64,000 nucleotides of DNA from Squalus acanthias (taxonomy: Eukaryota), in the NCBI GenBank assembly GCA_030390025.1, contig CM059431.1, forward strand, positions 129,024,001-129,088,000, given 5' to 3'. The position numbers were made by a program, and so were the translations under genes. This document shows positions 1,999-33,680 of the stretch, one piece after another. Numbering within the stretch: position 1 is the first letter of the stretch; each line of letters starts with the position of its first letter. The notes beneath the pieces were generated by a model that was given only the letters and a program-made list of their open reading frames with translations, had not been told where the DNA came from and searched no databases.

Positions 1999-2329
1999 AC
2001 TGAAGGGTGTGGCGGAACAGAGATACCTATGGATGCAAATACCTTGGGGGTGATTTTCTCACTGGAGGCGGGATGGAGGCGGGTTTCAGTTTGGGTGGGT
2101 TTGAAACCCAACTCCACAGATAGTTTACAAAAATTTGCGATTTTCCCATGATTGGCCACTTGATTTCAGAGGTGTGGGATGCCCTTGGTCAATTAGTGTT
2201 TTGGGGCAGAAACTGACCTCTGTTGACATCACTTTTCCAGTCTGATTTTATGGTTTCTTGCCGCCTTGGCTCATTCCACTGGATTTCTGCCGATGCTGCA
2301 CCACCTGCAACATATTCTGAGAAACCACT

Positions 2330-2515
2330 ATGTCCAATTCCAAGGCAAGGGCCTCCCCGAGGCTCTCGGATGAGGTGCTGCAAATGTTGTTTGAGGGGGT
2401 GACAGCTAGCCGGGAGGTGCTCTTCCACTCATCTGGGAGCAAGAGGCCTGCCAAAGAAACCAAGGCTGTGTGGGTCCAGCTGGCAAGGGATATAACCTCC
2501 AGATCTGTGTGCAGA
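2330..2515 (+). pseudogene. Harbinger Myb/SANT-like DNA-binding protein, N-terminal part
   Basis: PRLSDEVLQMLFEGVTASREVLF...AVWVQLARDITSRS; homologous to the ORFs at 33681-33941 and 37480-37710. Confidence 0.75.
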
Positions 2516-2756
2516 TTGGGAGAATGTTTCTGTGTATTGATGAAATGCCATCCCTGTTGGAAAGCATTAAAATAATTTGAAGCCAAAATGTTGGCGTTAT
2601 GGCATCTGTTCTTTTGCCTTAGGCAGCTCCACATTGCAGGCTCCACCACACTTCCATTGTCAGGTTGGTGGCCTGAGTGAAAGGAGGCCAGAGAGTCATG
2701 TCCATTGTCAATGATGTCCTAGGATGGAGCCAAGGACATGTGCCAACTTGGGCAAC

Positions 2757-3453
2757 CTATGCAAATCTGGCCATGATAAGTTCATCCCTTGCATCCCTGG
2801 CAGCCATGTGCTCGCGTGCTGCTGCTGCCGCTGGTTGATACACCAGTGCTCTGACCTCCTCCTGCTCCTCCTTCTCCTCCTCCTCCTCCTCCTCCTCATC
2901 TGAGGAGGGCTGGAACTGAGCCACTTGCTCATCAGGAAGCTGCAAGCCACGAGGCTGTGCGATGTTGTGCAGTGTACAGCAGACCACGACCATTCTGGAG
3001 ACCCTGTATGGTGTATACTGCAGGGCTTCACCTGATCGGTCAAGGCAATGGAAGCGCATCTTCAACAACCCAATGGTTTGCTCGATGATGGACCTGGTCG
3101 AAGTGTGGCTGGCATTGTAGCGCTCTTCAGCCTCGTTAGCTGGCCTCCTGATCGGTGTCATTGGCCACTTCTTCAGGGGGTAGCCTTTGTCACCAAGGAG
3201 CCATCCGTTAAGTTGGTTTGGTGGATTGAAAAGCGGAGGAACACTAGAGTGATGCAGGATGAAGAGTCCTGGCAACTACCACTGAACTTGGCGCAAACAT
3301 GCAAGAAATCCTTCTTGTGGTTAACCACCAGCTGTACATTGAGGGAGTGGAAACCCTTTCGGTTGACAAAGATAGCTGGGTTGTGATGGGGTGCCCTAAG
3401 GGCCACATGTGTGCAGTCTGTGACGCCCTGCACCATTGGCAAGCCTGCCATAT
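2757..3453 (-). pseudogene. Harbinger (HARBI1-like) transposase, C-terminal half
   Basis: [54 protein letters not shown], poly-E; one 1-bp frameshift near 3264. Confidence 0.9.
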
Positions 3454-3569
3454 TGTAGAATTCGCAATTATCGCGATTTGATTAATAAGGAGAAAACACA
3501 AAGTTTCGTTCAAACAGCTTTTATTTCAGCAGAATGCTGTCAGGTTTAAATTGGACACAAGCAGCCTGT

Positions 3570-3632
3570 AAAATGGCCGCCGCACCTCGTGACAGAACAT
3601 TCTAGACTTTTCAACAGGCAGACAAGATGGCG
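3570..3632 (+). promoter_or_regulatory. Two YY1-like motifs in U3
   Basis: AAAATGGCCGCC (3570-3581) and CAAGATGGCG (3623-3632); both retained in the diverged solo LTR (57522-57533, 57471-57480). Confidence 0.45.
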
Positions 3633-4027
3633 TTCCAATACACATTTTTGCAAGATCGATAACGATTCAGCACAGTGAAGATAATACACGAGACATTATG
3701 GGTTTACAGTATAAACATAGATACTGAAATCGGTCTCCCAGGTACAAAGGAAAGCCATTGCACCGAGTAATCAAGGGCCCATCCAAAGGACATTAGTATG
3801 TAAACTCCCAACGGCTCTACGATGAGAGAGCCGTTAGCAGGTAGTTATACAGGACACTTGGAAGCCCCAAACCCCTCCAGGGAGAACACCGACCGATTTA
3901 ACAATGGGAGAAGTATTAACAGGTACTCAAACATTCATGAGTAGCCCCGAAACCCATTAAGAACGGAGATCACCCATACAGGACATTTGGGCGCCAAACC
4001 TTAAACAAAAGAATGGACATTATAGTC

Positions 4028-4059
4028 GGGCGGGAAACGGAAGATTTTTGCACTATAAT
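4028..4059 (+). promoter_or_regulatory. Putative LTR core promoter (GC box + TATA-like)
   Basis: GGGCGGG at 4028-4034 and GCACTATAA(T) to 4059; same motif pair and similar spacing on the minus strand of the solo LTR at ~57042-57073. Confidence 0.55.
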
Positions 4060-4275
4060 TGCAGGCCCCAAACCGTCCACTCTCTCTCTTGACTCTTGCC
4101 TCTTGCTCGTTTGCTGCTTTTATCATCGTGGCTGCTCCTGTGTTTTATCCGGTCGATTCGTAACCTCGTGGCTGCTCCTGTGTAAAAGACTGTTGAACTT
4201 TCTGATCCGTTCGGATCTACCTCGTGTCGCGTAACGAAGACCTATGTTGGTAACTGGCAGCGGAACCAAAGGCCC

Positions 4276-4325
4276 GAGATGAGATGAGATGAGATGAGAT
4301 GAGATGAGAGGAGAAGAGAAGAAGA
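4276..4325 (+). repeat. (GAGAT)6-GAGAG-(GAGAA)2 microsatellite inside the LTR
   Basis: Read directly; the 3' LTR copy lacks the GAGAG unit. Confidence 0.9.
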
Positions 4326-4665
4326 CCATATCCATCGCCACGGTCAGTAAATCCCGACCGCGCCTGTAGGTCGATCAGCCAAGTCTTCTCGACAGGAAGT
4401 TTTCTTCGTTAAACTTTTAACAAGACATATTGCATCAACGATAACTGGACTGTGCAAACACATCGTATCAGTGATATTGACAACGGGACTCCTCAACTAA
4501 ACTGTGAAGTCAACCAACAGAGGTCTTCACCACAGCGGACGGTCCAGCCGACTAGCCGAGCAGCAGAAGCAGTAAACAAGTGGGACCAGGAGATCTCCTG
4601 ACCAACACGTGGGTGCTGCGGTGAAAAACATCCGATCAGCTATTCGGGATTTCTCCGAGTTATTA

Positions 4666-4680
4666 CGAGTGGTGAGCATG
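4666..4680 (+). promoter_or_regulatory. Putative major splice donor G|GTGAGC inside the LTR
   Basis: CGAGTGGTGAGCATG; GGTGAGCAT is conserved in both diverged solo LTRs (minus strand, ~56467-56475 and ~60619-60627). Confidence 0.55.
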
Positions 4681-5134
4681 AGTCTCGAGATCCTACGAAG
4701 CTAGTTTTAGGATAGATATTGATAGGGGAGGGTTTAAAGATTAAGGATATTTGTAATGTGTGCCCTATTTACGTTGTGCTGGTCGTTCCTCGTTTCCCTA
4801 AGAGTGATTATAACCGTTTGTAAGATTGTACTGTCATTAATCTGTGCGTATGACATGTATTTCATAATTTTAAGTATCATGCAATAAAGATTTTCCATTT
4901 CGTACCATTCAAACCAAGTCTACATGAGTTTTATCTCCATTACTGCTCTCGCATCTAAGTCCAGTGTCTAGAACCGTAAGGGAGAGTGATTCGAACCACT
5001 CACAGGGGTGTCTAGTGTTCCCAGACTGGCTGGAGACCAGGCCTAGACCCGCACTGACATACAGGCTGCACAGAGCCGCGTGAATCTCACAGGCTACGAG
5101 ACACGCAGGGTCAGGAGAGAATCCCTTACAGAAA

Positions 5135-6946
5135 ATGGCGACCGCGGCAGGACACTGGCAGCGAGAGGGTAGTGTGTTAGATTTTGGAATGACTGTACGA
5201 AATGTTATGCAGGAAAAGATAGCGGATTATGTGTTTGGGAAGGTTAATCTAACTAAAAAGTGGATAAGTGAGTTGTTAGCGGATAAGAGCCCACTAGAGG
5301 CAGCTGAAAGGTGGACTGATAGTAAGGAGCATAAAAAGGCAGTTGAGAAAGCAGTCTGGCTTATGTGCTACAAAAGGCAGGTTCAGATTTCAAACCAGAC
5401 CAATACAGCGCTAACAGCTCGAATCAAGCATTTAGAGGAGGAAATGGAGGAGAAGGTTTCTGGAGGGGAGGTGCTCATTAAGAGTTTAAATGAGTTACGC
5501 CAGGAAAGCCAGGAAGTCTCCAGTTACCTTAAAACAAGGGTAGAGTATCTCGAGTGCCAGATCACTGAAGCAAAATTGAACGAGAGTAGGATGAAGGAAA
5601 GATGTAACCGCCAAGCTGCCCAGATAAGAACTCAGGAAGAGAGCTTAATGGGGGTTAGGTCGGCGTATAAGTTGGCCCTTGAGGATAAGTTTCAGGGAGC
5701 CGACCATAGCGCCTGCCAAAAAGAGATAGAGAGCCTCAAAAAGGCCGTGAATAATGCGAACGGCATGGTGTGCCTTATCAATCCGTCGGCGCGCCAGCCG
5801 CTAGTAAATGAGAGATTTAGAAATTCCCCACCAAGTAAAGCAGAAGAAGTAGTAGCCACTGCGCCCTCCGCGCCACCCAGCTATTCAGAAACCTGGGTTA
5901 GGGAGGAAGCAACGGAAGAAACAAAAGAGCCCGTTGAAAAGGAAGTAGAAAAGGGATCGTTGTATCCAGTAACGGGGATTAAAAGGGGCCCAAGCAGAAA
6001 CGGTGGGGAAGAACCGGGGGATCTCCTCGGACAGCTGGTGTTGCCTCACAGTTCACATCAGCTGAGAGCCATGATAAACCACGTAAGGAAGCTGACCGAG
6101 ATAGACGACCCTTCCGTACATTTCAGGGAAGTTGAGCAAGCCGCAGCCATTAACGGCTGCGATGATGGGGAGACAGCAAAAATGCTGCTGTTCTCATTAG
6201 ACAGCTCGGTCCTTCAGTGTCTCTCAGGCGAGAGCAAGAGGGGAAATAAAAGTTATGAGGAATTGAAAAATGAGGTCCTAGAAGTAGTGGGGGCGAACGA
6301 CGGAGGTCCGTTTGCTAGAGTGGGACAGACAGTGCAGATGGAGGGAGAACCCCCGAAGGTTTTTGCCGACAGGCTGTGGCCAGTATATGAGCGCAGCTGT
6401 CTAGGTGCGCCCGAGCGCGAAGATGTGGAAGGCGCCGCTTTAATTCATTGGCTTAGGTGCATAATAGCCAACAGTTTACCAGCCGTTAGAGAGCAGGCAA
6501 AAGCCTGGTTCGATCCCAATGACCTCAACCTTACGGAAGAGTCGGTCTTGAATCGACTCACGTTAGGTTACCGTAACATAAGGGGTATGACGACACGTCC
6601 CTTTAAGGGAAGAGTACATGAGGTACGACCCGCAGCCCCGGCTCAAAGAGAGTGGCATCAGGAGGGTAATCGCGCCCCACAGGCAAGTAATGCCTGTTAC
6701 GGGTGTGGGAAGACAGGGCACTGGCGCAAGCACTGCAGGAACCCTTGGAAGGATTCCAAGGATAAAAATCCCGCGGTCCGAGCCCAGGCGCCTGTCCCGC
6801 CTAAGGAAGCAAAGGCACCCACCTCTCCCGAAGACCTCGAAGCAGTGTTAGGAGTCATGCGCAAGATGGTTTTGAATGCGCGTGGACAGGTGGCGGTCGC
6901 AACCGGCCCCGTAGGTGCCGCAGGACCGTCTAATAGTGCCCCATGA
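5135..6946 (+). CDS. gag: Gag polyprotein (603 aa)
   Basis: Open ORF right after the LTR; N-terminal coiled coil, PSAPPSY late motifs (5864-5884), CCHC knuckle CYGCGKTGHWRKHC (6695-6736). The start could be the downstream ATG at 5189. Confidence 0.92.
   Translation: MATAAGHWQREGSVLDFGMTVRNVMQEKIADYVFGKVNLTKKWISELLADKSPLEAAERWTDSKEHKKAVEKAVWLMCYKRQVQISNQTNTALTARIKHLEEEMEEKVSGGEVLIKSLNELRQESQEVSSYLKTRVEYLECQITEAKLNESRMKERCNRQAAQIRTQEESLMGVRSAYKLALEDKFQGADHSACQKEIESLKKAVNNANGMVCLINPSARQPLVNERFRNSPPSKAEEVVATAPSAPPSYSETWVREEATEETKEPVEKEVEKGSLYPVTGIKRGPSRNGGEEPGDLLGQLVLPHSSHQLRAMINHVRKLTEIDDPSVHFREVEQAAAINGCDDGETAKMLLFSLDSSVLQCLSGESKRGNKSYEELKNEVLEVVGANDGGPFARVGQTVQMEGEPPKVFADRLWPVYERSCLGAPEREDVEGAALIHWLRCIIANSLPAVREQAKAWFDPNDLNLTEESVLNRLTLGYRNIRGMTTRPFKGRVHEVRPAAPAQREWHQEGNRAPQASNACYGCGKTGHWRKHCRNPWKDSKDKNPAVRAQAPVPPKEAKAPTSPEDLEAVLGVMRKMVLNARGQVAVATGPVGAAGPSNSAP
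5136..5153 (+). promoter_or_regulatory. Primer-binding site, tRNA-Arg(UCG)-type
   Basis: TGGCGACCGCGGCAGGAC is the reverse complement of ...GTCCTGCCGCGGTCG-CCA, the 3' end of vertebrate tRNA-Arg(TCG) as I recall it; lies 5 nt after the LTR. Confidence 0.8.
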
Positions 6947-7330
6947 CTAGAACCAGCACAGCCCGTCTACCTGTGTCCGCTCAGCTATGATGCGTGGAGG
7001 CGACCTGTGGTGGAGATGGAGGTAGAGAAACAGAAAGGCAGTTATTTGTTGGACACGGGAGCTTCTTGCACCATAATCCATACAGATGACCCTTTTGACT
7101 CGCCGCTATCTACCAAGGTCCCATTCACGCTAGCAGGGTTCACAGGGAAAGAACAGGCTGGCACGTTTTCCCTCCCGCTATCCATTCGTTTAGGAACACT
7201 TCGCCTTAAGTGGAAGTGTATACTGATGGCATGGCAAAAGGGGGGTGGAAGAGGTATTCTCGGGTCCGATCTCCTAGCGGGACACGGGATCCTCGTGGAC
7301 CTCAGAAATCACTGTCTCTGGGGGGGCTAA
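6947..7330 (+). CDS. pro: Aspartic protease, in frame with gag behind a UGA stop
   Basis: LLDTGAS (DTG at 7052-7060) and GILGSDLL; same frame as gag with no stop between 6947 and 7327. Confidence 0.88.
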   Translation, partial: LEPAQPVYLCPLSYDAWRRPVVEMEVEKQKGSYLLDTGASCTIIHTDDPFDSPLSTKVPFTLAGFTGKEQAGTFSLPLSIRLGTLRLKWKCILMAWQKGGGRGILGSDLLAGHGILVDLRNHCLWGG

Positions 7331-10300
7331 AGGTGAAAAAGGCGAGGTAATGGTAATTCAAGGGGAGGAAGAAACAGGGGTCCTGTGTACCGTACAGCCA
7401 TCCGGAGGCTACGACCTCAGGCTTATGGTCGCAGATGTCCCAACGGACATGCAAACGTACGTGTCAGATGACATGCACGCGTTTGCAACCCACAAGCACG
7501 ATTGTGGGAGGGTGGTCGGGTTTGAGGTCAGCGTAGATGGGGACCCCATGACCCGACCCCAAAAGCAGTATAACTTCCCCAAGGAAGCAGAACCCGATAT
7601 GGAGGCAGCAATGTCTTCCTTGGTGCAGCAGGGCGTGTTGAGACCGATAGCCACACACGTGAACTCCCCATTATGGCCGGTTAGGAAGCCGGATAATTCG
7701 TGGAGAGCCACGGTGGACTACAGAGTCCTTAACAGTAACATTCCCACCTGCGCGCCTACAGTAGCAGCAGTTGCTGACCTAATAGGGAGCATCCCAGCGT
7801 CCGCGACCACGTTCACGGTGCTGGATATCTCGAACGGTTTTTGGTCCATCCCGCTGCGGCGAGAGGACCAGTACAAGTTTGCCTTTACGTTTAAAGGGCA
7901 ACAGTACACGTGGAACTGTTTGCCACAGGGTTTCCACAATAGCCCCAGTATTTTTCACCAGTGTATGGCAGGAAGTTTAAAGGAGTTTAGTCAGCCCAAT
8001 CAGATAGTCCAGTATGTGGATGATTTGCTCCTATTTACGGACTCAAGGGAGGAGCACGGACCACTACTGGACGAGTTATTGGAGCTGTTAGCGAGAAAGG
8101 GTTTTAAAGTAAACCCAAAGAAAGCACGTATCGGTCAGCAGGAAGTAAAATTCCTGGGACTGACCCTACGCGCTGGGGAAAGAGCCATAGACAAAGCAAG
8201 GAGGGAGTCGGTGCAAGAATTACCGATTCCCAACAACGTAAGGGGTGTGAGGTCCTTCTTGGGACTGACCGGTTACTGCAGGGATTTTATCGAAGATTAT
8301 GCGGCCACAGCGGCGCCGCTCCTCCGACTCCTCCATAAGGGAGTGGAGTGGTCTTGGGACGAGGGCTGCCAAGCAGCCTTCGAGAAGTTAAAAAGGGATC
8401 TGCAGACTGCGCCAGCCTTAGGGGCCATAGATGGGGGGAAGGAGTTTTTCCTGGAGGTAGCTGCCAGCGGGGACAGCTTAAGCGCCGTGCTGCTCCAAGA
8501 GCGTCACGGCAAGCTGAGGCCGGTTGTCTATTCATCCAGGGTATTAACGGATGTGGAGAGAAGTTTTTCCAATTGCGAAAGGCACCTTTTAGCCACGCAT
8601 TGGGCTGTGAAAAGATCAGCGATCTTCACAGGGCTCTCTCCCATCACTCTCCTCACACATCACACACCAACTAAGATGCTTCTGGATGGGAGGATTAAAG
8701 ACGGGACCGTAAGCAGCGCACGCATTGCGCGTTGGACCCTTCTTCTCTCCCAGTTGGATCTTAGAGTAAAAGGTCTTTGCGAGCCCAGGCTTGCGGCCAA
8801 TTTGGTATACCCCGGTACAGCCCACCGGTGTTCGGTGGAAGGGGTGTGGGACGTCAACATAGGTTTACGGGCCGGGATACATCCCACTGGGCGCGAGATT
8901 TATGTTGATGGCTCTAGCACAGTATCTGCTGGCGAGCGACTCACAGGGTGTGGAGTTTATGACCCTGCGGCAGACCTTGCCCTGGCGATCAAGCTCCCTA
9001 GCACCATGAGCGCGCAGCAGGCTGAGCTGTCTGCCGTGGTGTACGTGGTGACCCACCCAGACGTTTTCCCAACCCCATACACGATTTGCTCGGACAGTAT
9101 GTTCACCTGCAATTCGTGTACGGAATACCTGGCCATTTGGTCCCGCCGCGGATACACCTCCGCGGACGGGCGACCTTTAACGGTAAAGCCCTTGCTGGAA
9201 AAGATCTTAGCAGCAGCAGTAGGGGAGGAAGGGGAGATTTTCATCCATAAGGTGAAAGCTCACTCCTCCGCAGAGCCCCGTGGGGAGGGCAACCGGCAGG
9301 CGGATGCGCTAGCCAGGGAGGGTGCCCGCGACGGCACTTTCTGGAACCCCTATAGGACCGGACCCATAGCAGCGGTCCGAGGCGGGGACGGGAATACCGG
9401 GAACACCAGGGTAGCATTGCCCCTAGACCTTAAGACCGTCCAAGCCCAGGATCCCGCCCTAAAAGCAGTCCTAAAAACGATTGCTGAGGGGAGGCAGGTA
9501 GAAGGTCCGTACAGTACGGCAACCCTCTCAGTTAAGGAAGGCATGCTGTTCCGCGGGGAGCAGTGGGTTGTGCCGCAGCAGCACAGGAGGGAATTCCTCC
9601 AGTTGGCTCACGAGGGACCAGGGGCAGGGCACCCCGGGCCCGAGGTTACCTGGCAACGGGTAGAGCAAGCGGGATGGTGGCCAGGGCTCAGGGAACAAGT
9701 CCGCGAGTTCTGCGCTAACTGTCTTGTGTGCGCTGCAAACAACCCAGACCCCCAGAAAAGGAAGGTGCCCATGGGACACGTAAGAAGGGTAGAGGGACCA
9801 TGGCAGTCGATACAGATCGACTATATAGGACCCCTGCCCACCACCCAGGGAGGTTATAAGTACTGCCTCGTCCTGGTGGATGTGTTTTCCAAGTGGGTGG
9901 AAGCCTTCCCTTGTCGAACAGCTACGGCACTGGGTACAGCAAAAATCTTGGTCCGGGAAGTGTTCTCGCGGTGGGGACTCCCCCGTTTTGTGGAGTCAGA
10001 CCAAGGGAGTCATTTCACCGGCCAGGTGATGCAGAACACCCTCATGCTTTTGGGCATTGAAGGGAAGTGGCACGTAGCACACAATCCCCAGTCATCCGGG
10101 ATTGTCGAACGTATGAACCGGACCCTGAAGGAGAAATTGAGGAAAGAGACTAGGAACTCGCCCCAAAAATGGGCGGAAGTTCTGCCTTTAGTCCTCATGG
10201 GGGTCCGGGCCAGTCAGTCAAAAAGTACGGGGTACTCCCCGCACGAGGTAATGACCGGCAGGCTCATGCGAACCCCCACCCATGTGCTAGCCCCGGTGCT

Positions 10301-11471
10301 CACTGAGGGTCAGCTTCAAGAGATCAGCAGGGACAAGTTCGCCCAAACTCTCTTGGAGCGCCTGAAGCAAGTTTATGAGCAGGCGGCTGGGAACATGGGA
10401 AGGCAGCATCAGGGCAATCGCTTGTTGCTGGAACCCCGCAAAACGCGGGAGTGGGAAGTAGGAGACCAGGTCATGGTCAGAAACTACGCCAGAGTAGGGA
10501 GTCTGGAACCACTGTATATGGGACCCTACAACATTGTAGACAAGGCGAGTCCCATGGTTTACGCCGTAAAAGTACCTCGGCGCACTAAGTGGTTCCACAT
10601 AAACCAATGTAAACTGTACCAGCCGGGTGCGCAAGGGAAAACTACAGGGGTAAATCCCGCCAATGGGAAAACACAGCCCCAGGTAGGACCACAAGGCACA
10701 CAGGCAGGCGTAGCAGCTTGCATCAGGGGAAGGGACATCCCGGACGATCATGCAGCGTTTTTCTGGAGTTGGGGGTTAGATGACGAAGAACCCAGGGTAC
10801 CCTGGTCAGATGAGGATAGTGCAGATGAGTATAGTGATGATGACGGGTGGTTCCTGAGGAACGGTCTGGGAGGATTGGGGCCGATAGGTAGAGATCCACA
10901 CGGGGTGGACACACAAGCTGCAGGTCCCGAGGACAGGAGGGAGGAGCTAGAGGAGGCAGGGCCAGCCGCTATAGGAGCACAGAGAGTACCAATGTGGTTC
11001 CCAGAGGGGTGGCCGCCCGCTTTGAACGTCCAGTCCTCAGGGGAGGCAGAGATCACGAGTGAAGGGCCGCCTGCTGGGCCGAGCAGGGCGGAGCCACGAA
11101 ATGCCAGCCCCGAGGTTAGGGAGGCGGAGTCAGCGGAGGCGGAGCCGGCGACTGTAATGGAACCCCAGGTCGTCCCGTTGGAGGTCTCGGAACCCGGTCC
11201 GTCCGTCACGGAACCCCCGCCCATAGCAACTCCCCGTAGGTCTAGCAGAGAACCCCAGCCCAGGAGGATGTGGTCATGTCCCCAGATTGCCCCAAGGCGT
11301 AAAATCCAGGTTAAGATAACCCGGGTAGAAACAGGCCACATCGCAGCAGTAACAGGCTGCGGCAGATCAGAGGAAAGGGTCAGCGCAGCAACAGGCTGCG
11401 GCAAATCAGAGGGAAGGGTCAGTGCCCTCCCACCGTCGGGAAGAGCTCGCAGCAGCCTTCTCAGAATTTAA
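7326..11471 (+). CDS. pol: Pol: RT, degenerate RNase H (tether), RNase HI, integrase, C-terminal extension
   Basis: LPQGFHNSP and YVDD (8013-8024); RH1 ~8445-8760; RH2 IYVDGS/AELSAV/SDS/GNRQAD ~8895-9330; HHCC from 9609; IDYIGP, SDQGSHF, SSGIVERMN, GPY. Frame is +1 to pro and open from 7326; first ATG at 7350. Confidence 0.95.
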   Translation, partial: AKGEKGEVMVIQGEEETGVLCTVQPSGGYDLRLMVADVPTDMQTYVSDDMHAFATHKHDCGRVVGFEVSVDGDPMTRPQKQYNFPKEAEPDMEAAMSSLVQQGVLRPIATHVNSPLWPVRKPDNSWRATVDYRVLNSNIPTCAPTVAAVADLIGSIPASATTFTVLDISNGFWSIPLRREDQYKFAFTFKGQQYTWNCLPQGFHNSPSIFHQCMAGSLKEFSQPNQIVQYVDDLLLFTDSREEHGPLLDELLELLARKGFKVNPKKARIGQQEVKFLGLTLRAGERAIDKARRESVQELPIPNNVRGVRSFLGLTGYCRDFIEDYAATAAPLLRLLHKGVEWSWDEGCQAAFEKLKRDLQTAPALGAIDGGKEFFLEVAASGDSLSAVLLQERHGKLRPVVYSSRVLTDVERSFSNCERHLLATHWAVKRSAIFTGLSPITLLTHHTPTKMLLDGRIKDGTVSSARIARWTLLLSQLDLRVKGLCEPRLAANLVYPGTAHRCSVEGVWDVNIGLRAGIHPTGREIYVDGSSTVSAGERLTGCGVYDPAADLALAIKLPSTMSAQQAELSAVVYVVTHPDVFPTPYTICSDSMFTCNSCTEYLAIWSRRGYTSADGRPLTVKPLLEKILAAAVGEEGEIFIHKVKAHSSAEPRGEGNRQADALAREGARDGTFWNPYRTGPIAAVRGGDGNTGNTRVALPLDLKTVQAQDPALKAVLKTIAEGRQVEGPYSTATLSVKEGMLFRGEQWVVPQQHRREFLQLAHEGPGAGHPGPEVTWQRVEQAGWWPGLREQVREFCANCLVCAANNPDPQKRKVPMGHVRRVEGPWQSIQIDYIGPLPTTQGGYKYCLVLVDVFSKWVEAFPCRTATALGTAKILVREVFSRWGLPRFVESDQGSHFTGQVMQNTLMLLGIEGKWHVAHNPQSSGIVERMNRTLKEKLRKETRNSPQKWAEVLPLVLMGVRASQSKSTGYSPHEVMTGRLMRTPTHVLAPVLTEGQLQEISRDKFAQTLLERLKQVYEQAAGNMGRQHQGNRLLLEPRKTREWEVGDQVMVRNYARVGSLEPLYMGPYNIVDKASPMVYAVKVPRRTKWFHINQCKLYQPGAQGKTTGVNPANGKTQPQVGPQGTQAGVAACIRGRDIPDDHAAFFWSWGLDDEEPRVPWSDEDSADEYSDDDGWFLRNGLGGLGPIGRDPHGVDTQAAGPEDRREELEEAGPAAIGAQRVPMWFPEGWPPALNVQSSGEAEITSEGPPAGPSRAEPRNASPEVREAESAEAEPATVMEPQVVPLEVSEPGPSVTEPPPIATPRRSSREPQPRRMWSCPQIAPRRKIQVKITRVETGHIAAVTGCGRSEERVSAATGCGKSEGRVSALPPSGRARSSLLRI
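11346..11423 (+). repeat. 39-bp tandem duplication in the Pol tail (AVTGCGRSEERVS / AATGCGKSEGRVS)
   Basis: Two adjacent near-identical 13-codon units. Confidence 0.85.
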
Positions 11472-11710
11472 AGGGGCCGCCCTGAGAACGGGCGGCACTG
11501 TAAAGTTATAGTTCAAGGTTAAGTTTTAAGTTTATTAGTTCAAGGTTAAGTTTGTAGTGTTTTAACAGATAACGATAAAATGATGGGAGTTTTAAGGCTA
11601 GGTTTAGAGGAAGTCTATTCAGCAAACGTTGAAGTTTACGTGAGGCGAGGTCAGGGGACCCGCTCACCCTTCACAAAAGCCAGAGACTTTTTGCGAGGCT
11701 GGCTACCTCA

Positions 11711-11727
11711 TTCTATCTGATCACAGG
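11711..11727 (+). promoter_or_regulatory. Putative env splice acceptor
   Basis: TTCTATCTGATCACAG|G, 13 nt upstream of the env ATG (11740). Confidence 0.45.
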
Positions 11728-11739
11728 AACCAAGGAAGG

Positions 11740-14091
11740 ATGGAACGACTTCTAGTATTGCTCGTGGCAATCGGATGTGGATTGGCCTATCGAGGCCACA
11801 CCAAGGATGTCGTGGTGTTTGGATGTTCCGGGGACACGGCCCCCATCGCGGTGGATGGGACCGGAAGACGGAAGGCAGAAGGGACCAGCACCTATTTCCA
11901 CAAGGGAAGGTGGCCAGGATGGCTGGGAACGAACTCAACGGAGTATTCCAGCACATCGGGGTTCGCCTACAAAGAGACTTCTTTAATGTGCCCCAAAGTA
12001 CGGATCATCGCACCCAGGATCAGCGTCACCGTCGGCAAACGGATTTGTTTGACCTGTAGTGGGGATGTCCCACTGAGCCGATGGTGGTGGCTGCGAAAGC
12101 TGAGCAAAACTATGAGGAACTCTTCGGTCGAGTGGGAACGACTGGGTAATAATACCCATCGGACAATTACGGGGACAGACGGACAAGTGAAAGTCTGTTG
12201 GGACAAATGGTGGGAACCGGATGAGGGGATTTATGTTTGTATGTGGGGGTCAAAGTACGTTTGCCCCAAAGGCATCTCCATATTTTTTATTAATCAGTGG
12301 CAGGATAACGGACAGGGGATGAGGTGGGATGCGAGCACCAGGGGGTGCGGAGCCCCATTCTCCCCGATCCCAGTAAATGCCACTGAGCTCATTACGCGCC
12401 CACGCAAAGCCCCGCCCACGATTCCGGTGGTTCTAACTGAGGAAGAAGGGTGCCCTAAAACTAGTAAGGGACCCGGGAACGGTTTGGTACTGGTCCCCAC
12501 AGACCAGATACTATTTCAGGGGGTACATTACGCGGTGGCCTCAGTGATTTTAAATCTCACTGAGGTACGGTTACCAGAGTGGTGCCCCAAAAAGACGGAA
12601 CAGTTGTATCAGGTCCTGTTGACCAAGATGTTCAGACAATTTTACGAGTTTGATTTTGCAGAAATTGATAAGACAAGTTTATACACCGCACCGCAGGAAG
12701 TTTTGGATCAAGTAGGGAGGCAAAGAAGGGGTTTGGTGAACGATGCGTTCACTGCTTTTAATACAGGGACATCTGTGGTCAACGCTCTAGACAGTGTGGA
12801 GCTGCAGACCCAGATTAATGGTTTAAAAACACAGTTAAAAGACATTCTAACAGATGAGAATAAAGTGGTAGGGTCAGGTCTGCATGAGGACCAAGCCATG
12901 ACTCTCCATTTAAAAGAGATTATAGCAGAGCTGGAGAAACATGCGCGTACGGTAAATGCCCTGATCAGGGAAGATCGGAATGCATCCGATCAAGCTGCGC
13001 AGAACGAGGTGTGCGTGCTTTACGGGGCGTGGTTACTGGGCGAGGGCCGCAGTAATCTGGAGGATTTAAAACAAGGTTTGGTTCCGTCCTGGATAAGTAA
13101 CAAACACCTGCGGGCGCTCCACCCTTTTCAGAACGCATTAAGTCCGTGCCAGCTCAGGCTAGCTTCAGAAGCTTACCCAGTCCCCGTGGACTGCGGACGT
13201 TCAAACCATACTATTATGGGAATAGTATTACGCATGCCGGTTTTGGGCAACACAGCAAAGCCCGCCCCGGTATATCGGGTAGAGAACATTGGTGTCATTC
13301 AGGGGGGAGCCCACATTCGTTATGCAGCGGTTCCACCTTACGTCATCCGCTGGGAGCAAACGATGACAGGTACAGATCTCTCTGGTTGTCGTGGCAGGGG
13401 AGCACACATAATACTGTGCCCCCAGCACTTGAATGCCTTTTTAACACCACAGTGCGGGTTCAGAACGGCTGGCGCCAAGTCCATGAATTGCACCATGGAG
13501 GCAATGGCACAAGATCATGTGCCTCCGCAGGTAGCATACATCGGGGGTGGAACATATTGTGTTACCACTGCAGCGCAACACTACCAGCATGGAAACCGTA
13601 GCCGGTGTCCGGTGAGTGACAGCAGTTTCTGTTTTAAACCCAGGGCTGAAGTTCAAGTAGCACAACAGCGAATTATCCCAATCCCTGAACCATCCACTGT
13701 TCATCTCACAGTAAAAGAGAATTTCACCGACTTGCAGCGATTTGTCGCGCATTTTGGATACCTCATTCCCCCTCTCCCTGAGCATTTAACCAAACTTCTG
13801 AAAGCCGTCGCGGTGTCACAAAAGCATTTTTATACATTAGAACAGAAAACTGTCGAAATTGGAACAGACATTTTGGACATAGTGGTTCCACCGTGGTGGA
13901 ATCTGTTCACCAATATTGAAGTGCCCTCATGGGTCAGAATAGCCTCCCACATTTTAGTCGTCTGTCAAGTGTTTATTGTAGTGTACCTATTGTTCATACA
14001 TTGTAAAAGAGACAAGCGCCTCACCAAGCATGAGAACACGGGAGAGTGGCGAGAACGTTACGTGCGCGTGCACGATGAGAGCACCGTGTAA
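11740..14091 (+). CDS. env: Envelope glycoprotein (783 aa): signal peptide, Ig-like domain, furin site, F-like fusion subunit, TM anchor
   Basis: MERLLVLLVAIGCGLA signal; RQRR|GL at 12718-12729 followed by heptad repeats; Cys-rich region; several N-x-S/T sequons; TM at 13939-14004. Confidence 0.9.
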   Translation: MERLLVLLVAIGCGLAYRGHTKDVVVFGCSGDTAPIAVDGTGRRKAEGTSTYFHKGRWPGWLGTNSTEYSSTSGFAYKETSLMCPKVRIIAPRISVTVGKRICLTCSGDVPLSRWWWLRKLSKTMRNSSVEWERLGNNTHRTITGTDGQVKVCWDKWWEPDEGIYVCMWGSKYVCPKGISIFFINQWQDNGQGMRWDASTRGCGAPFSPIPVNATELITRPRKAPPTIPVVLTEEEGCPKTSKGPGNGLVLVPTDQILFQGVHYAVASVILNLTEVRLPEWCPKKTEQLYQVLLTKMFRQFYEFDFAEIDKTSLYTAPQEVLDQVGRQRRGLVNDAFTAFNTGTSVVNALDSVELQTQINGLKTQLKDILTDENKVVGSGLHEDQAMTLHLKEIIAELEKHARTVNALIREDRNASDQAAQNEVCVLYGAWLLGEGRSNLEDLKQGLVPSWISNKHLRALHPFQNALSPCQLRLASEAYPVPVDCGRSNHTIMGIVLRMPVLGNTAKPAPVYRVENIGVIQGGAHIRYAAVPPYVIRWEQTMTGTDLSGCRGRGAHIILCPQHLNAFLTPQCGFRTAGAKSMNCTMEAMAQDHVPPQVAYIGGGTYCVTTAAQHYQHGNRSRCPVSDSSFCFKPRAEVQVAQQRIIPIPEPSTVHLTVKENFTDLQRFVAHFGYLIPPLPEHLTKLLKAVAVSQKHFYTLEQKTVEIGTDILDIVVPPWWNLFTNIEVPSWVRIASHILVVCQVFIVVYLLFIHCKRDKRLTKHENTGEWRERYVRVHDESTV

Positions 14092-14502
14092 TAGGAAAAT
14101 GGCGTCACTCCCGCTCGCCACGTGCGCCGCGGAAGTTTGTACTCATTGTAAATACGTTGGAAACTCGACATGTTTAAGAGTTGGGATTTGTTTACTTTGG
14201 TGATGGTGTTGATTGTTTGGTTTTGGGTTTTGTTTTTTCCTTTCCCTGAATAAAAGACAAATATACAGGTGATGCGTGAGGTATCGGCCTGGTTACGCCG
14301 GAAAGGAAAACAAGTGGTGTAAGTTTAAGGGCAAATGATGCCTACGGTGATATAAAATGTGATTTTCTTGGGAAATAAGGACGACACAGAGACCCTAGTT
14401 AAGTTAAAATTTATGGGATTAATTTACTGGATTCGGAGTGAAATCGAGATAAGATTGCTCACCACTGAGATTTTTGATACGATAAGCGGAGTTATTCGCA
14501 TC

Positions 14503-14514
14503 AACAGGAGGGAC
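14503..14514 (+). promoter_or_regulatory. Polypurine tract
   Basis: AACAGGAGGGAC abutting the TG of the 3' LTR. Confidence 0.65.
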
Positions 14515-16187
14515 TGTAGAATTCGCAATTATCGCGATTTGATTAATAAGGAGAAAACACAAAGTTTCGTTCAAACAGCTTTTATTTCAGCAGAATGCTG
14601 TCAGGTTTAAATTGGACACAAGCAGCCTGTAAAATGGCCGCCGCACCTCGTGACAGAACATTCTAGACTTTTCAACAGGCAGACAAGATGGCGTTCCAAT
14701 ACACATTTTTGCAAGATCGATAACGATTCAGCACAGTGAAGATAATACACGAGACATTATGGGTTTACAGTATAAACATAGATACTGAAATCGGTCTCCC
14801 AGGTACAAAGGAAAGCCATTGCACCGAGTAATCAAGGGCCCATCCAAAGGACATTAGTATGTAAACTCCCAACGGCTCTACGATGAGAGAGCCGTTAGCA
14901 GGTAGTTATACAGGACACTTGGAAGCCCCAAACCCCTCCAGGGAGAACACCGACCGATTTTAACAATGGGAGAAGTATTAACAGGTACTCAAACATTCAT
15001 GAGTAGCCCCGAAACCCATTAAGAACGGAGATCACCCATACAGGACATTTGGGCGCCAAACCTTAAACAAAAGAATGGACATTATAGTCGGGCGGGAAAC
15101 GGAAGATTTTTGCACTATAATTGCAGGCCCCAAACCGTCCACTCTCTCTCTTGACTCTTGCCTCTTGCTCGTTTGCTGCTTTTATCATCGTGGCTGCTCC
15201 TGTGTTTTATCCGGTCGATTCGTAACCTCGTGGCTGCTCCTGTGTAAAAGACTGTTGAACTTTCTGATCCGTTCGGATCTACCTCGTGTCGCGTAACGAA
15301 GACCTATGTTGGTAACTGGCAGCGGAACCAAAGGCCCGAGATGAGATGAGATGAGATGAGATGAGATGAGAAGAGAAGAAGACCATATCCATCGCCACGG
15401 TCAGTAAATCCCGACCGCGCCTGTAGGTCGATCAGCCAAGTCTTCTCGACAGGAAGTTTTCTTCGTTAAACTTTTAACAAGACATATTGCATCAACGATA
15501 ACTGGACTGTGCAAACACATCGTATCAGTGATATTGACAACGGGACTCCTCAACTAAACTGTGAAGTCAACCAACAGAGGTCTTCACCACAGCGGACGGT
15601 CCAGCCGACTAGCCGAGCAGCAGAAGCAGTAAACAAGTGGGACCAGGAGATCTCCTGACCAACACGTGGGTGCTGCGGTGAAAAACATCCGATCAGCTAT
15701 TCGGGATTTCTCCGAGTTATTACGAGTGGTGAGCATGAGTCTCGAGATCCTACGAAGCTAGTTTTAGGATAGATATTGATAGGGGAGGGTTTAAAGATTA
15801 AGGATATTTGTAATGTGTGCCCTATTTACGTTGTGCTGGTCGTTCCTCGTTTCCCTAAGAGTGATTATAACCGTTTGTAAGATTGTACTGTCATTAATCT
15901 GTGCGTATGACATGTATTTCATAATTTTAAGTATCATGCAATAAAGATTTTCCATTTCGTACCATTCAAACCAAGTCTACATGAGTTTTATCTCCATTAC
16001 TGCTCTCGCATCTAAGTCCAGTGTCTAGAACCGTAAGGGAGAGTGATTCGAACCACTCACAGGGGTGTCTAGTGTTCCCAGACTGGCTGGAGACCAGGCC
16101 TAGACCCGCACTGACATACAGGCTGCACAGAGCCGCGTGAATCTCACAGGCTACGAGACACGCAGGGTCAGGAGAGAATCCCTTACA
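14515..16187 (+). repeat. 3' LTR (1673 bp)
   Basis: By eye identical to the 5' LTR except +1 T in a T-run (~14958-14961) and one fewer 5-bp microsatellite unit; the lengths reconcile (1677+1-5). Confidence 0.97.
15940..15945 (+). terminator. Polyadenylation signal AATAAA in the 3' LTR (4883-4888 in the 5' LTR)
   Basis: GCAATAAAGATT; GCAATAAAGATT is also conserved on the minus strand of the solo LTR (~56253-56264). Confidence 0.65.
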
Positions 16188-16720
16188 ATATTTGCAAAGC
16201 CAACCAAATGGGCGGTTATACTTGCTTGATCCCTTGTGAACTGGATGTAATTGTGGGCCTTAGCAAACAGGGCATCGGTAACCTGCATGATGCAACTGTG
16301 GGCAGCCGACTGGGAGATGCTGCTGATGTCTGCTGATGATCCCTGGAAGGAGCCTGAGGCAAAGAAGTTGAGTGCGGTGGTGACTTTGACAACCACTGGT
16401 AAGGGGTGTCCACCCGTTCCTCTGGGCACCAGGTCTTGCTGCAGCAGTCCGCAGATCTCTCGGACAACCTCTCGCGAAAGTCTCAGCCTCCTTTGGCACT
16501 GCTGCTCACTCATGTTGAGGTAGCTCATCCTTTGTCTGTAAACCCTCTGTCGGGGATATCTCCTGCGGTGAGGTGCCTCGATGCGCTGGTGCCTTCTGCC
16601 CTGAGCAGGAGGTTGGGGCTCCTGCTGGTGTTGCTCCTGATCTGCCTGGTTCTGCTGCTGCCGTGGATGCTCCTCATCCTCATCTGAGGTCCCTGCAGAA
16701 AGAAAATGAATGGTTCCCAT
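16188..16720 (-). pseudogene. Harbinger transposase, N-terminal half
   Basis: MGTIHF...[13 protein letters not shown]...[20 protein letters not shown]...GFAN; joins MAGLPMVQG at 3451 once the provirus and one TSD are removed. Confidence 0.9.
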
Positions 16721-22000: not shown

Positions 22001-23088
22001 CACATCTTGAGTATTGTGTGCAGTTTTGGTCGCCTTATCTGAGGAAAGAGGTTCTTGCCATGGAAGGAGTTCAGCGAAGATTCACCAGGCTGATACCTGG
22101 GATGCCAGGAATGACATATGAGGAGAGATTGGGTCGATTGGGCTTGTACTCGCTGGAGTTTAGAAGAATGAGAGGGGATCTCATTGAAACTTATAAAATT
22201 CTAAAAACAGGACTGGACAGACTAGATGCAGGAAGGATGTTCCGATGGTCAGGGAGTCCAGAACCAGGGGTCACAGACTAAGGATAAGGGGTAAGCCATT
22301 TAGGACAGAAATGAGGAGGAATTTCTTCACCCAGAGAGTGGTGAACCTGTGGAATTCTCTACCACACAAGGCAGTAGAGGCCAATTCATTAAATATATTC
22401 AAGAAGGAGTTGGATATATTTCTTAAGGCTAAAGGGATCAAGGGATATGGGGAGAAAGCAGGGACAGGGTTCTGAATTTGGATGATCAGCCATGATCGCA
22501 TTGAATGGTGGAGCAGGCTAGAGGGGCTGAATGGCCTACACCTGCTCCTATCTTCTATGTTTCTATGTTTCTCTGTTTCTATGTCTTTTGCACACATGTG
22601 GTGGGCTCCACCATCATTGATGATGGGAATGTTCATGGAGCCTTCTCCACCCGTTAGTTGTTTAATTGTCCACCACCATTAAAGACTGGATGTGGCAGGA
22701 CTGCAGAGCTTTGATCTGATCCGTTGGTTGTGGGATTGCTTAGCTCTGTCTATAGCATGCTGCTTCCACTGTTTAGCATCCATGTAGTCCTGTGCTGCAG
22801 CTTCACCAGCTTGGCACCTCATATATAGGTACGCCTGGTGCTGCTCCTGGCATGTTCTTCTTCATTCCTTATTGAACAAGGGTTGGTCCCCTGGCTTGAT
22901 GGTAATAGTAGAATGAGGGATATGCCGGGTCATGAGGTTGCAGATTGTGCTGGAATATAATTCTGCTGCTGCTGGTGGCCCAGAGTGCCTCATGGATGCC
23001 CAGTTTTGAGCTGCTAGATCTGTTCTGAATTTATCCCATTTAGCTCAATGGTAGTGCCACACAACATGATGGAGGGTGTCCTCAGTGT
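19066..23088 (-). mobile_element. LINE family B (CR1/L2 group) ORF2 remnant, split by a younger CR1
   Basis: ALDTKAAFDRVW, VPQGSV.GP, FADDC, MEYSPPVWMSAAPTILKKL; (TGAA)n tail at the left end. Confidence 0.85.
20769..22581 (+). mobile_element. 5'-truncated young CR1 LINE
   Basis: RT ORFs 20641-21525 and 21535-22281 (KSPGPD, YLDFQKAF, GVPQGSVLGP, FADNTK), (TCTATGTT)n tail, TSD TGTCTT (20763-20768, 22582-22587). Confidence 0.92.
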
Positions 23089-30600: not shown

Positions 30601-32399
30601 AGTAAGGCTTTTGACAAAGTCCCGCAGGGGAGACTGGTCAAGAAGGTAAGAGCCCATGGGATCCAGGGCAATTTGGCACATTGGATCCAAAATTGGCTTA
30701 GTGGCAGGAGGCAGAGGGTAATGGTCGAAGGTTGCTTTTGTGACTGGAAGCCTGTGTCCAGTGGTGTACCGCAGGGATCGGTGCTGGGTCCCTTGCTGTT
30801 TGTAGTGCACATTAATGATTTAGATATGAATGTAGGAGGTATGATCAGTAAGTTCGCAGATGACATGAAAATTGGTGGAGTGGTAAATAGTGAGGAGGGA
30901 AGCCTCAGGCTACAGGACGATATAGATGGGTTGGTCAGATGGGCAGAACAGTGGCAAATGGAATTTAACCATGAAAAGTGTGAGGTGATACATTTTGGGA
31001 GGACTAACAAGGAAAGGGAATACTCAATGAATGGTGGGACCCTAGGAAGGACAGAGGATCAGAGGGACCTTGGTGTACATGTACATAGCTACCTGTCCTG
31101 CTGCCTTCAGGGATCTAAGGTGGTTAAGAAGGCATATGGGATACTTGCCTTCATTAGCCGAGGCATAGAATATAAGAGCAGGGAGGTTATGATGGAGCTG
31201 TACAAAACGCTAGTTAGGCCACAGCTGGAATACTGTGTGCAGTTCTGGTCGCTACACTATAGGAAGAATGTGATTACATTGGAGAGGGTGCAGAGGAGAT
31301 TCACCAGGATGTTACCTGGGCTGGAGCGTTTCAGCTATGAAGAGAGACTGGACAGGCTGGGGTTGTTTTCCTTAGAGCAGAGAAGGCTGAGGGGGGACCC
31401 GATTGAGGTGTACAAAATTATGAGGGGCATAGATAGGGTAGATAGAAAGGAACTTTTCCCCTCAGCAGAGGGGTCAATAACCAGGGGGCATAGTTTCAAG
31501 GTAAGGGGCAGGAGGTTTAGAGGGGATTGGAGGAAAAACTTTTTAACCGAGAGGATGGTTGAAATCTGGAACTCACTGCCTGAAAGGGTGGTAGAGGCAG
31601 GAACCCTCAACATTCAAGAAGCATTTAGATGAGCACTTGAAACACCATAGCATACAAGGCTACGGACCAAGTGCTGGAAAATGGGATTAGAATAGACAGG
31701 GCTTGATGGCCGGCGCGGACACGATTGGCCGAAGGGCCTCTTTCTGTGCTGTATAACTCTATGACTCTGTGACTCTATCACCTGAAGCTGCACAGGCCAG
31801 AAGGCGCCAGCGCAGGGAAGGACATCGCCGCAGTAGATACCCCCAACACAGGGTTTAAAGACAGAGGATGAGCTACCTCAACATGACTGCGCAGCAGTGC
31901 CAAAGGAGGCCCAGACTTTCGCGAGAGGTAGTGGGTGACATCTGTGCAATGCTGCAGCAAGACCTGGAGCCCAGAGGAGTGGGTGGACACCCCTTACCAG
32001 TGGCCGTCAAAGTCACCAACCCACGCAACCTTTTTGCTTCAGGCTCATTCCAGTGATCAACAGCAGACATCAGCGGTATCTCCCAGGCGGCCGCACACAC
32101 TTGCATCACGCAGGTAACCGATGCCCTCTTTGCCAACATGCACAATTACATCAACTTCTCCAAGGATCAAGCAAGTGTAACCACGTGTGCGGTTGGCTTT
32201 GCTACTCTGGCAGGCTTTCCAAGGGTGCAGGGTGTCGTTGACTGCACACATGTGGCCCTTAAGGCACCCCATCACTATCCAGGTATTTTTGTCAACCACA
32301 AGGGCTTCCACTCCCTCAACATGCAGCTGGTGTGTAACCACAATAAGGAAATTTTGCATGTTTGCGCCAAGTACCCTGGCAGTTGCCATGACTCCTTCA
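27682..32399 (+). pseudogene. Harbinger transposase split by CR1 (parts 27682-27820 and 31778-32399); 3' part lost
   Basis: MGTIYF..Q-rich; [31 protein letters not shown]; close paralogue of the transposase at 2757-16720. Confidence 0.85.
27823..31777 (+). mobile_element. Near full-length CR1 LINE (ORF1 esterase; ORF2 APE endonuclease + RT), inactivated
   Basis: ORF1 CxxC..CxxC zipper, GDSIVRG, HIGTND, DGLHLN; ORF2 YFNARS, ITETWL, GDFN, SDHN, KSPGPD, FADD; (CTCTATGA)n-like tail; several stops and frameshifts. Confidence 0.93.
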
Positions 32400-33507: not shown

Positions 33508-33680
33508 TCACAGTGATAGGGAGTGTCTGGGCTGCATAGTCGAATAGTTACGTGAATGTGAACATAGAGAGAGAGGGAATGGTTAAGGGTGCAGGGATGT
33601 AAGGGTCAAGTGGGATGTGGAGGAGGAGGTTGACAATGCAGAGTGCTGGTGATGAGAGGCGATGGGGAGCAGATTGAGGG

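Follow-up and report, generated by a model that had tools for sequence, protein, structure and literature searches.

A young provirus in the Squalus acanthias genome with an F-like envelope protein, probably a member of a deep SnRV-related lineage of canonical retroviruses

We analysed a stretch of 64,000 nucleotides from Squalus acanthias (NCBI GenBank assembly GCA_030390025.1, contig CM059431.1, positions 129,024,001 to 129,088,000 of the forward strand; hereafter referred to as the window). Positions 3454-16187 of the window hold a full provirus with the order long terminal repeat (LTR), primer-binding site (PBS), gag, pro, pol, env, polypurine tract (PPT) and LTR. With a probability of roughly three in four, this element is an endogenous retrovirus (ERV) of the canonical Retroviridae, belonging to a deep lineage that is related to snakehead retrovirus (SnRV) and includes ERVs of elasmobranchs, frogs and the coelacanth, and its family expanded very recently in a way that needed gag, pol and env. 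A preliminary description, made from the sequence alone, had instead proposed a lokiretrovirus or a member of a new neighbouring lineage.

The position of the element was examined with a tree of the reverse transcriptase (RT) and the RNase H-like tether (44 rows, 421 columns; IQ-TREE, LG+C20+F+G4, posterior mean site frequency (PMSF) model, careful search), in which seven gypsy proteins served as the outgroup and from which nine redundant or long rows had been removed beforehand (L011, L023, L034, L039, L043, L046, L049, P0020 and P0034). Reference retroviral genomes were gathered by short degenerate motifs, giving 13 gamma/epsilon-type, 17 foamy-length and 11 beta-type records; their type labels come from the motif used and the tree position, with only L018 and L027 checked against Pfam. 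SnRV was represented by the IMG/VR record L022, whose RT is identical to that of SnRV in the part printed in the supplement of Wang and Han 2020, and the lokiretroviruses by three contigs from one metagenome scan (L052-L054), the Pol of which resembles the printed lokiretrovirus consensus. A search of the protein database for lokiretrovirus references gave nine matches among 23 candidates, none of them a lokiretrovirus, and a search of viral contigs gave no matches.

In this tree, the lokiretrovirus references formed one clade (support 100/99), the sister of which was made up of the canonical retroviruses including the element (100/99), and the seven gypsy rows stood outside at 100/100. The element paired with an unnamed sequence 88-90% identical to it (100/100) and was grouped with frog and coelacanth ERVs annotated as 'NYNRIN-like' (90/94). 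The foamy references made up a clade of their own without the element (100/100), and the epsilon-type reference L018 fell into the class I group, apart from the element, in the RT tree as well as in an integrase tree. Forcing the element's clade together with the lokiretroviruses cost 28.6 log-likelihood units and was rejected by the approximately unbiased (AU) test (p=0.00076); forcing it together with SnRV cost 0.01 units (AU p=0.49). Judged by the RT and tether sequences, the element is not a lokiretrovirus and is placed inside the canonical Retroviridae. Of the preliminary proposal, the lokiretrovirus assignment is contradicted by these values, whereas the word 'neighbouring' comes close to the data.

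The RT of the element carries LPQGFHNSPSIFH and QYVDDLLL. The motifs LPQGFHNSP and QYVDDLLL agree with the SnRV and class I types and not with the lokiretroviruses, for which the accessible text of Wang and Han 2020 (PMC7947760) gives CPFGYxNSPAEFN and IYVDDIL; a search of the host genome for the lokiretrovirus RT motif returned no matches. Searched against the protein database, Pol was nearest to proteins labelled 'NYNRIN-like' from three frogs and the coelacanth, with which it shares 42-45% identity; unnamed sequences and class I-type ERVs came next, with about 30%. These frog and coelacanth relatives are closer to the element than is SnRV, whose Pol is 33% identical over 675 amino acids (RT-RNase H).

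Pfam families recognised in the element include a retroviral protease, RT, a gypsy-type RNase H-like tether, a second RNase H, the H2C2 zinc domain and the integrase core; in the PDB, its Pol matched the RT of murine leukaemia virus (MLV), foamy virus and Ty3, and the integrase of prototype foamy virus (PFV). Read in the translation, the catalytic motifs are intact: DTG, YVDD, the acidic residues of RNase H, HHCC and DDE, assigned from their known positions. The tether and the second domain (RT_RNaseH/RT_RNaseH_2 at residues 360-492, RNase_H at 540-683) make up the dual RNase H that had been noticed before and combined with an F-like Env into a diagnosis of lokiretroviruses. The dual RNase H is present, but it is common to all retroviruses and does not carry that diagnosis. 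These features also set the element apart from the Metaviridae (Ty3/gypsy), since it has a second RNase H and its RT lies outside the gypsy rows. Unlike in the epsilonretroviruses, neither an MLVIN_C tail (by Pfam) nor accessory open reading frames (ORFs), which are cyclin-like in that genus, were seen in the element.

SnRV (L022) resembles the element in having a gag of about 620 codons, a stop, an in-frame pro-pol of 1398 codons and env, and its RT core motifs are alike. Both Gag proteins have an N-terminal coiled coil and a single CCHC zinc knuckle, and they are weakly similar (E=2e-4). Comparison of the element's Gag with the PDB gave nucleocapsid-like knuckle matches at E about 0.1, and no relation to a lokiretrovirus Gag was detected (E=0.19). 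The Env proteins of SnRV and the element are distantly homologous. SnRV differs in having a 3' ORF and in the length of its Env (1134 codons versus 783 amino acids). Earlier descriptions of SnRV-related ERVs cover all major groups of vertebrates ('clade Huo'; Xu et al. 2018, PMC6001957), the elephant shark (lineage I CmiERVs; Han 2015, PMC4422223) and frogs (PMC4131045), as far as the available text of these papers goes; the element would add a member to that group.

Env by itself gave no significant match in Pfam or the PDB, and no match to the Pfam family PF00523. A full HMMER pass over 1.84 billion representatives recovered 49 relatives, the named ones from skate (74-75% identity), sawshark, catshark, sevengill shark, houndshark, bamboo shark and three frogs; the mostly elasmobranch list bears out the cartilaginous-fish setting guessed in the preliminary description. 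An alignment of 23 Env sequences (A1) keeps a CP...GP..GL motif, the furin-type site, the fusion peptide, the long heptad repeat, the cysteine pattern, the second heptad repeat and the membrane anchor, and its profile matched the transmembrane (TM) chain of foamy virus gp130 (8rm1_D, E=1.7e-4). In hhalign comparisons with single Env proteins, A1 matched that of a lokiretrovirus best (L053; 98.8%, E=4.5e-17, 361 columns), followed by those of the epsilon-type record L018 (96.1%, E=3.1e-9, 354 columns), SnRV (L022; 86.4%, E=4.7e-6, 297 columns) and a foamy virus (L027; 61.2%, E=8e-5, 98 columns). The gamma-type control L013 reached 11.6% (E=0.0026) over 38 columns, covering the TM helix only. 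These profile comparisons indicate that the Env is demonstrably homologous to a lokiretrovirus Env and is related more weakly to the epsilon-type, SnRV and foamy proteins.

The AlphaFold model of Env has a mean predicted local distance difference test (pLDDT) score of 55 and is confident at residues about 236-310 and 400-650. Foldseek matched it to the fusion (F) proteins of paramyxoviruses and pneumoviruses at E=2e-11 and below (human parainfluenza virus 3 (hPIV3) F, E=2e-11), and VIA-align gave Z=13.1 over 343 residues, the top 50 entries listed all being paramyxo- or pneumovirus F. The model aligns to the F proteins of henipavirus, hPIV3, Newcastle disease virus (NDV) and respiratory syncytial virus (RSV) over about 280-340 residues, at an identity of only 7-16%. 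As in F, the protein appears to be class I with an F-type core (the available text of Fernandez et al. 2024, PMC11468914, compares foamy Env with F). In the F viruses the attachment protein is separate, whereas the receptor-binding part of the element's Env would lie N-terminal to the cleavage site. We picture Env as a trimeric class I fusion protein of the paramyxovirus-F/foamy type, which furin would cleave into an N-terminal receptor-binding part and a TM subunit of roughly 450 residues with the whole fusion machinery. The likeness to the F proteins of the Mononegavirales that had been remarked on earlier is, on the model, real, but it is no hallmark of lokiretroviruses, as an F-like Env was also detected in SnRV, an epsilon-type virus and a foamy virus. 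A frog gene model contains a Pol of the element's clade followed by the N-terminus of an Env of the same family (48% identity, E=2e-29); the pairing of this Pol with this Env is therefore a trait of the lineage.

An Ig-like domain in the N-terminal part of Env was suggested by a JAM match at E=1.3 and by the source name of a shark homologue, but an AlphaFold model built from residues 21-247 alone was too poor to use (pLDDT 37); we claim no domain there.

The copy figures for the 3.71-Gb assembly are a floor for the youngest subfamily, as they concern the best 40-73 of thousands of first-look candidates (2150 to 12905 across probes, unscored). With a 2-kb pol probe, the best 40 scored matches, out of 2998 such candidates, were 99-100% identical. 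All 57 scored matches of the Env protein probe were full length and stop-free, and so were 72 of the 73 scored Gag matches with respect to stops, which gives at least 57 open env and at least 72 open gag copies. Ten copies were sampled from the pol list. In nine of them the two LTRs differed by 0-5 mismatches over about 1655-1725 bases, and most of these nine pairs had matching 4-base flanks; the tenth pair did not align as expected. Compared with the LTRs of the window copy, those of the sampled copies show 8-49 mismatches and several indels; the recent insertions therefore came from several sublineages. In the window copy, the two LTRs have TG...CA termini, no mismatch in 1672 aligned positions and two length differences, in line with the youth claimed for it earlier. 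With the two LTRs free of substitutions, an age of a few million years at most would follow even from the slow rate that Han 2015 used for the elephant shark (2.2e-10 per site per year; accessible part of PMC4422223), and a mammalian rate would cut this tenfold.

Most of the differences that separate the copies are silent. In rows chosen by DNA similarity of the pro region, the ratio of amino acid-changing to silent polymorphism (pN/pS) was 0.16 for gag (29 rows; 39 amino acid-changing versus 61 silent variable codons), 0.12 for pol (29 rows; 27 versus 51) and 0.10 for env (nine rows; 31 versus 70). An env value of 0.04, from 21 copies ranked by protein identity, was set aside because such ranking favours silent differences. 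The silent-rich differences in gag, pol and env suggest that most of the divergence arose under selection, which argues for env-dependent spread. The same logic, by which an env under selection indicates spread by reinfection, has been used for human ERVs. These data point to env-dependent replication until very recently. The family would have grown very recently to at least dozens of copies, probably many more, by infection or reinfection of germline cells and not by env-independent retrotransposition, and it may remain active through copies other than that of the window.

The reading frames bear on how these proteins would be made. As described before, gag (603 amino acids), pol (more than 1370 amino acids, in a frame of 1397 codons) and env (783 amino acids) are open, and the sole lesion of the window copy lies between pro and pol, where the frame shifts within a G run near 7320. 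The frame was continuous across this point in all 23 other copies that had both exact anchors (29 loci examined, six unscored). Contigs of all four public runs inspected showed a one-letter length difference from the window copy there. This variant made up the whole depth in one run, the larger part in another and roughly one third in the remaining two. The frameshift is private to the window copy because the other copies and the public-run contigs differ from it at this point. The normal arrangement of the family is gag, a stop, and then in-frame pro-pol. Gag-Pro-Pol would be made by read-through of the gag UGA into the in-frame pro-pol, as in SnRV; UGA-CUAG, the context found here, is a strong read-through context. 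The window copy itself cannot make Pol by this route, which its private frameshift cuts. Env is presumably translated from a spliced mRNA.

Several results weigh against the reading proposed here. The references are few (three lokiretroviruses, one SnRV) and come without Odin, a fish foamy-like ERV, an elephant-shark ERV or NYNRIN. The base of the canonical retroviruses is a trichotomy of the element's clade, SnRV and the rest, the last comprising the foamy and class I/II types (90/67), which permits the label 'SnRV-related' without demonstrating it. The lokiretroviruses are nested inside the element's clade in the integrase tree (95/89) and joined to it in the RNase H tree (93). The copies analysed come from the best-matching 40-73 and represent the youngest subfamily only, and the pairwise pN/pS values reuse shared branches. 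In an unbiased sample of eight env copies, three were intact, four had different private stops and one had a frameshift; post-insertion decay is therefore visible. RNA structure behind the gag stop was not above background (z=-0.23), and a leader-env link was found in none of the joints listed (15 of 42) from contigs of four public runs.

The groupings of integrase and RNase H with the lokiretroviruses therefore allow a mosaic origin, in which ancient recombination would have joined a canonical SnRV-like RT to a loki-derived RNase H-integrase-env module. In the integrase tree (41 rows, 256 columns, careful search), which holds no NYNRIN sequence, the element's clade and the lokiretroviruses formed one group beside the outgroup (87/81), the lokiretroviruses being sister to the four frog and coelacanth members, and the SnRV integrase grouped with the foamy and beta types, apart from the element's clade. 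A tree of the acquired RNase H (quick, unrooted; 36 rows, 156 columns) likewise joined the element's clade and the lokiretroviruses, with the value of 93 given by the Shimodaira-Hasegawa-like approximate likelihood ratio test (SH-aLRT). The Env profile also fits the lokiretrovirus Env far better than that of SnRV, and repeated replacement of RNase H and integrase in retroviral history is reported in the available text of Wang and Han 2020 (PMC7947760). However, an AU test on the integrase data did not reject the RT-like arrangement (p=0.14), and the RNase H split between the element's clade plus lokiretroviruses and the rest is exactly as expected under the RT topology once the root of this unrooted tree is placed on the lokiretrovirus branch. 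The Pol-Env pairing in the frog gene model is the same, so that any exchange would be old. The simplest reading would be a single history for all four regions, in which gypsy is followed by the lokiretroviruses, then by the element's clade and then by SnRV, foamy viruses and the rest. We consider the mosaic origin rather unlikely.

An intracellular retrotransposon, whose Env would be only a passenger in copies too young to decay, was also weighed. The apparently very high copy number (2150 to 12905 unscored first-look candidates) and the private lesions in five of the eight unbiased env copies would suit it, whereas an env with 70 silent against 31 amino acid-changing codons and a pN/pS of 0.10, as low as in gag and pol, is unexpected if env is dispensable; we regard this explanation as improbable.

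That the element is a true lokiretrovirus, a shark or ray member misplaced in the RT tree by sparse sampling or long branches, appears very improbable to us. It does share with the lokiretroviruses the dual RNase H and a homologous F-like Env, which is closest to a lokiretrovirus Env (E=4.5e-17), its integrase and RNase H lie nearest to theirs, and a first tree, built without lokiretrovirus references, had put the element's clade at the very base of the retroviruses. The 'NYNRIN-like' annotation of its relatives fits the link between lokiretrovirus integrase and CGIN1 described in the accessible text of PMC7947760. Their RTs, however, are separated by the deepest retroviral split, the branch with 100/99 that parts the lokiretroviruses from the canonical clade, and a joint clade was rejected; the catalytic-site motifs of the element's RT are canonical, and the lokiretrovirus motif is without a match in the host genome. 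In addition, the element has no smc gene, and its Env lacks the PF00523 match that the lokiretrovirus Env reference gave weakly (E=0.0022), as described in Wang and Han 2020. The available text of the same study lists lokiretroviruses in none of the three Orectolobiformes genomes of its 2020 screen (PMC7947760). The preliminary description had named an outcome that would speak against its assignment, an RT nested firmly in a known gypsy clade or in epsilon/spuma ERVs together with an Env of a conventional surface/transmembrane (SU/TM) family; the RT does nest within the canonical retroviruses, whereas the Env belongs to no conventional SU/TM family.

A foamy-like (spuma-type) ERV of cartilaginous fish is scarcely credible. 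In its favour, the integrase finds its best match among solved structures in that of PFV (E=1e-33), the Env profile matches foamy gp130 TM, and a 2023 paper in J Virol reportedly describes endogenous foamy viruses from cartilaginous fish. Against it, the foamy references form their 100/100 clade without the element (in a tree that holds no foamy-like ERVs of fish or cartilaginous fish), the Env similarity extends over about 100-170 residues only, Gag has a CCHC knuckle, pro-pol follows in the gag frame behind a stop, and no Pfam foamy Gag, Env or protease family was matched, whereas the foamy reference L027 matches Spuma_A9PTase.

The boundaries and the insertion site of the provirus are given in Table 1. 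Integration generated a 4-bp duplication, as had been stated in the preliminary description along with the completeness of the provirus. In a paralogous copy of the host repeat, the sequence of the left flank passes straight into that of the right flank, with five bases in place of the provirus and one ATAT; because it joins the two flanks in this way, this copy serves as an empty site. The TATAAA and AATAAA of the 5' LTR are located motifs with putative functions. The last 15 nucleotides of host tRNA-Arg(TCG) genes (e.g. locus L105) plus CCA are the complement of the PBS, and the primer of reverse transcription is, by this complementarity, tRNA-Arg(TCG).

Table 1. Features of the provirus and its empty site, in window coordinates
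Feature	Position	Strand	Basis and remarks
5' target-site duplication, ATAT	3450..3453	+	identical 4 bases beyond 3' LTR; paralogous empty site at 31788-32394
5' LTR, 1677 bp, TG...CA; TATAAA at 3710, AATAAA at 4883	3454..5130	+	alignment to 3' LTR
PBS, 18 nt, complement of tRNA-Arg(TCG) 3' end + CCA	5136..5153	+	sequence and host tRNA gene
gag, 603 aa	5135..6946	+	ATG at 5135, TGA at 6944-6946, context TGA-CTAG
pro, DTG aspartic protease	6947..7330	+	gag frame, directly behind gag stop; Pfam RVP E=1.6e-5, stretch about 6995-7285
pro/pol frame overlap with frameshift in G run near 7320	7278..7330	+	frames; continuous in other copies
pol	7331..11471	+	Pfam; open pol frame 7278-11471, 1397 codons
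RT (YVDD)	about 7680-8168	+	Pfam
Degenerate RNase H-like tether	about 8355-8753	+	Pfam
RNase H	about 8895-9326	+	Pfam
Integrase H2C2	about 9570-9746	+	Pfam
Integrase core	about 9798-10088	+	Pfam
Integrase SH3-like	about 10491-10619	+	Pfam/PDB comparison
Pol tail, acidic/proline-rich, about 270 aa, without family match	10665-11468	+	beyond SH3-like; ends 269 bases before env ATG
env, 783 aa	11740..14091	+	reading frame, alignment, model
Env parts, N to C	11740..14091	+	signal peptide, poorly modelled N part, furin-type site, fusion peptide, long heptad-repeat helix, cysteine-rich F-like core (model residues about 244-672), second heptad repeat, TM helix, short tail
Furin-type RQRR, residues 327-330	12718-12729	+	alignment/translation
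Env TM helix, residues about 731-755	13930-14004	+	alignment/model
PPT-like run AGGAGGGA	14506..14513	+	sequence, just 5' of 3' LTR; putative function
3' LTR, 1673 bp	14515..16187	+	LTR alignment
3' target-site duplication, ATAT	16188..16191	+	match to 5' copy
Paralogous copy of the host repeat entered by the provirus; acts as empty site	31788..32394	-	inverted repeats I2 and I10; junction

The provirus lies inside an older host repeat (3264-3453 and 16188-16608), the inverted copy of which, 15 kb downstream, is 84-85% alike. The remaining window is rich in further repeats, among them three copies of a ~1.3-kb unit (19205-20433, 45382-46766 and 58155-59237; 65-95% alike) and an inverted pair (21482-22575 and 32398-33489) that is 96% complementary over more than 700 nt. 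Open frames of 200-385 codons are found elsewhere in the window at 20617-22281, 28405-31632 and 32498-33547. On contig C26, at about 38.99-41.88 Mb (L106-L110), the tRNA-Arg(TCG) genes form long tandem arrays that repeat every ~1623 bp; the repeated unit also contains a tRNA-Ser(GCT), and the 20-nt 3' part of tRNA-Arg(TCG) has 433 exact matches in the genome.

Further relatives of the Env were also noticed. The epsilon-type record L018 (12.7 kb, integrase with an MLVIN_C tail) contains a homologous Env (5962-9648), and F-like envelopes may be general among fish retroviruses. Several chimeric shark gene models (P0006, P0007, P0042 and P0071), some Niban 1-like or ZFP2-like and others with cadherin or F-box domains, include pieces of this Env family and look like annotation artefacts from ERV insertions. 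The Env-like part of P0071 gave a weak Baculovirus F match (E=0.0011).

Between 55 and 73% of the element's 31-mers were present in 20 public runs (X1-X20) from ten studies with six organism codes, none of them recorded as RNA. The sequence in the runs with these six codes is roughly 98-99% identical to the element. Either close species share the family, or the family moves between them.

The published description of the elephant-shark elements dates them to 54.5 and 75 million years, the latter for the SnRV-related lineage I copy (PMC4422223); set against that description, the lineage I CmiERV is old whereas the element's family is very young. In the nucleotide supplement of Han 2015, a search limited by the line breaks of the PDF gave no match to the element's PBS and two RT sites of other types. 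Among open-access papers and preprints, bioRxiv supplements excepted, three points seem unpublished: that the Env, RNase H and integrase of this lineage are linked to those of the lokiretroviruses, that such an Env has an F-type fold, and how large and young the family is.

These results, taken together, show that a lokiretrovirus cannot be diagnosed from dual RNase H and an F-like Env alone, since the 'loki-type' F-like envelope extends to a basal canonical lineage, SnRV, an epsilon-type virus and a foamy virus; this bears on how distinct the lokiretroviruses are and on the form of the first retroviral envelope. We tentatively raise a further possibility, which we think doubtful: the element's clade would be the earliest canonical branch and have retained the RNase H, integrase and F-like Env shared with the lokiretroviruses, the ancestral envelope would have been of the F type, and the family would still be infectious. 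The near-identical sequence in runs with six organism codes is offered for a family still circulating in living elasmobranchs. If this possibility were true, the F-type fusion protein would be ancestral in retroviruses and have been replaced later in the gamma-, beta- and lenti-type viruses. The retroviruses of cartilaginous fish reported previously are old fossils in the published accounts available, whereas this family is young, numerous and mostly open. With purifying selection in all three genes, it is therefore a candidate for a recently or currently infectious elasmobranch retrovirus.

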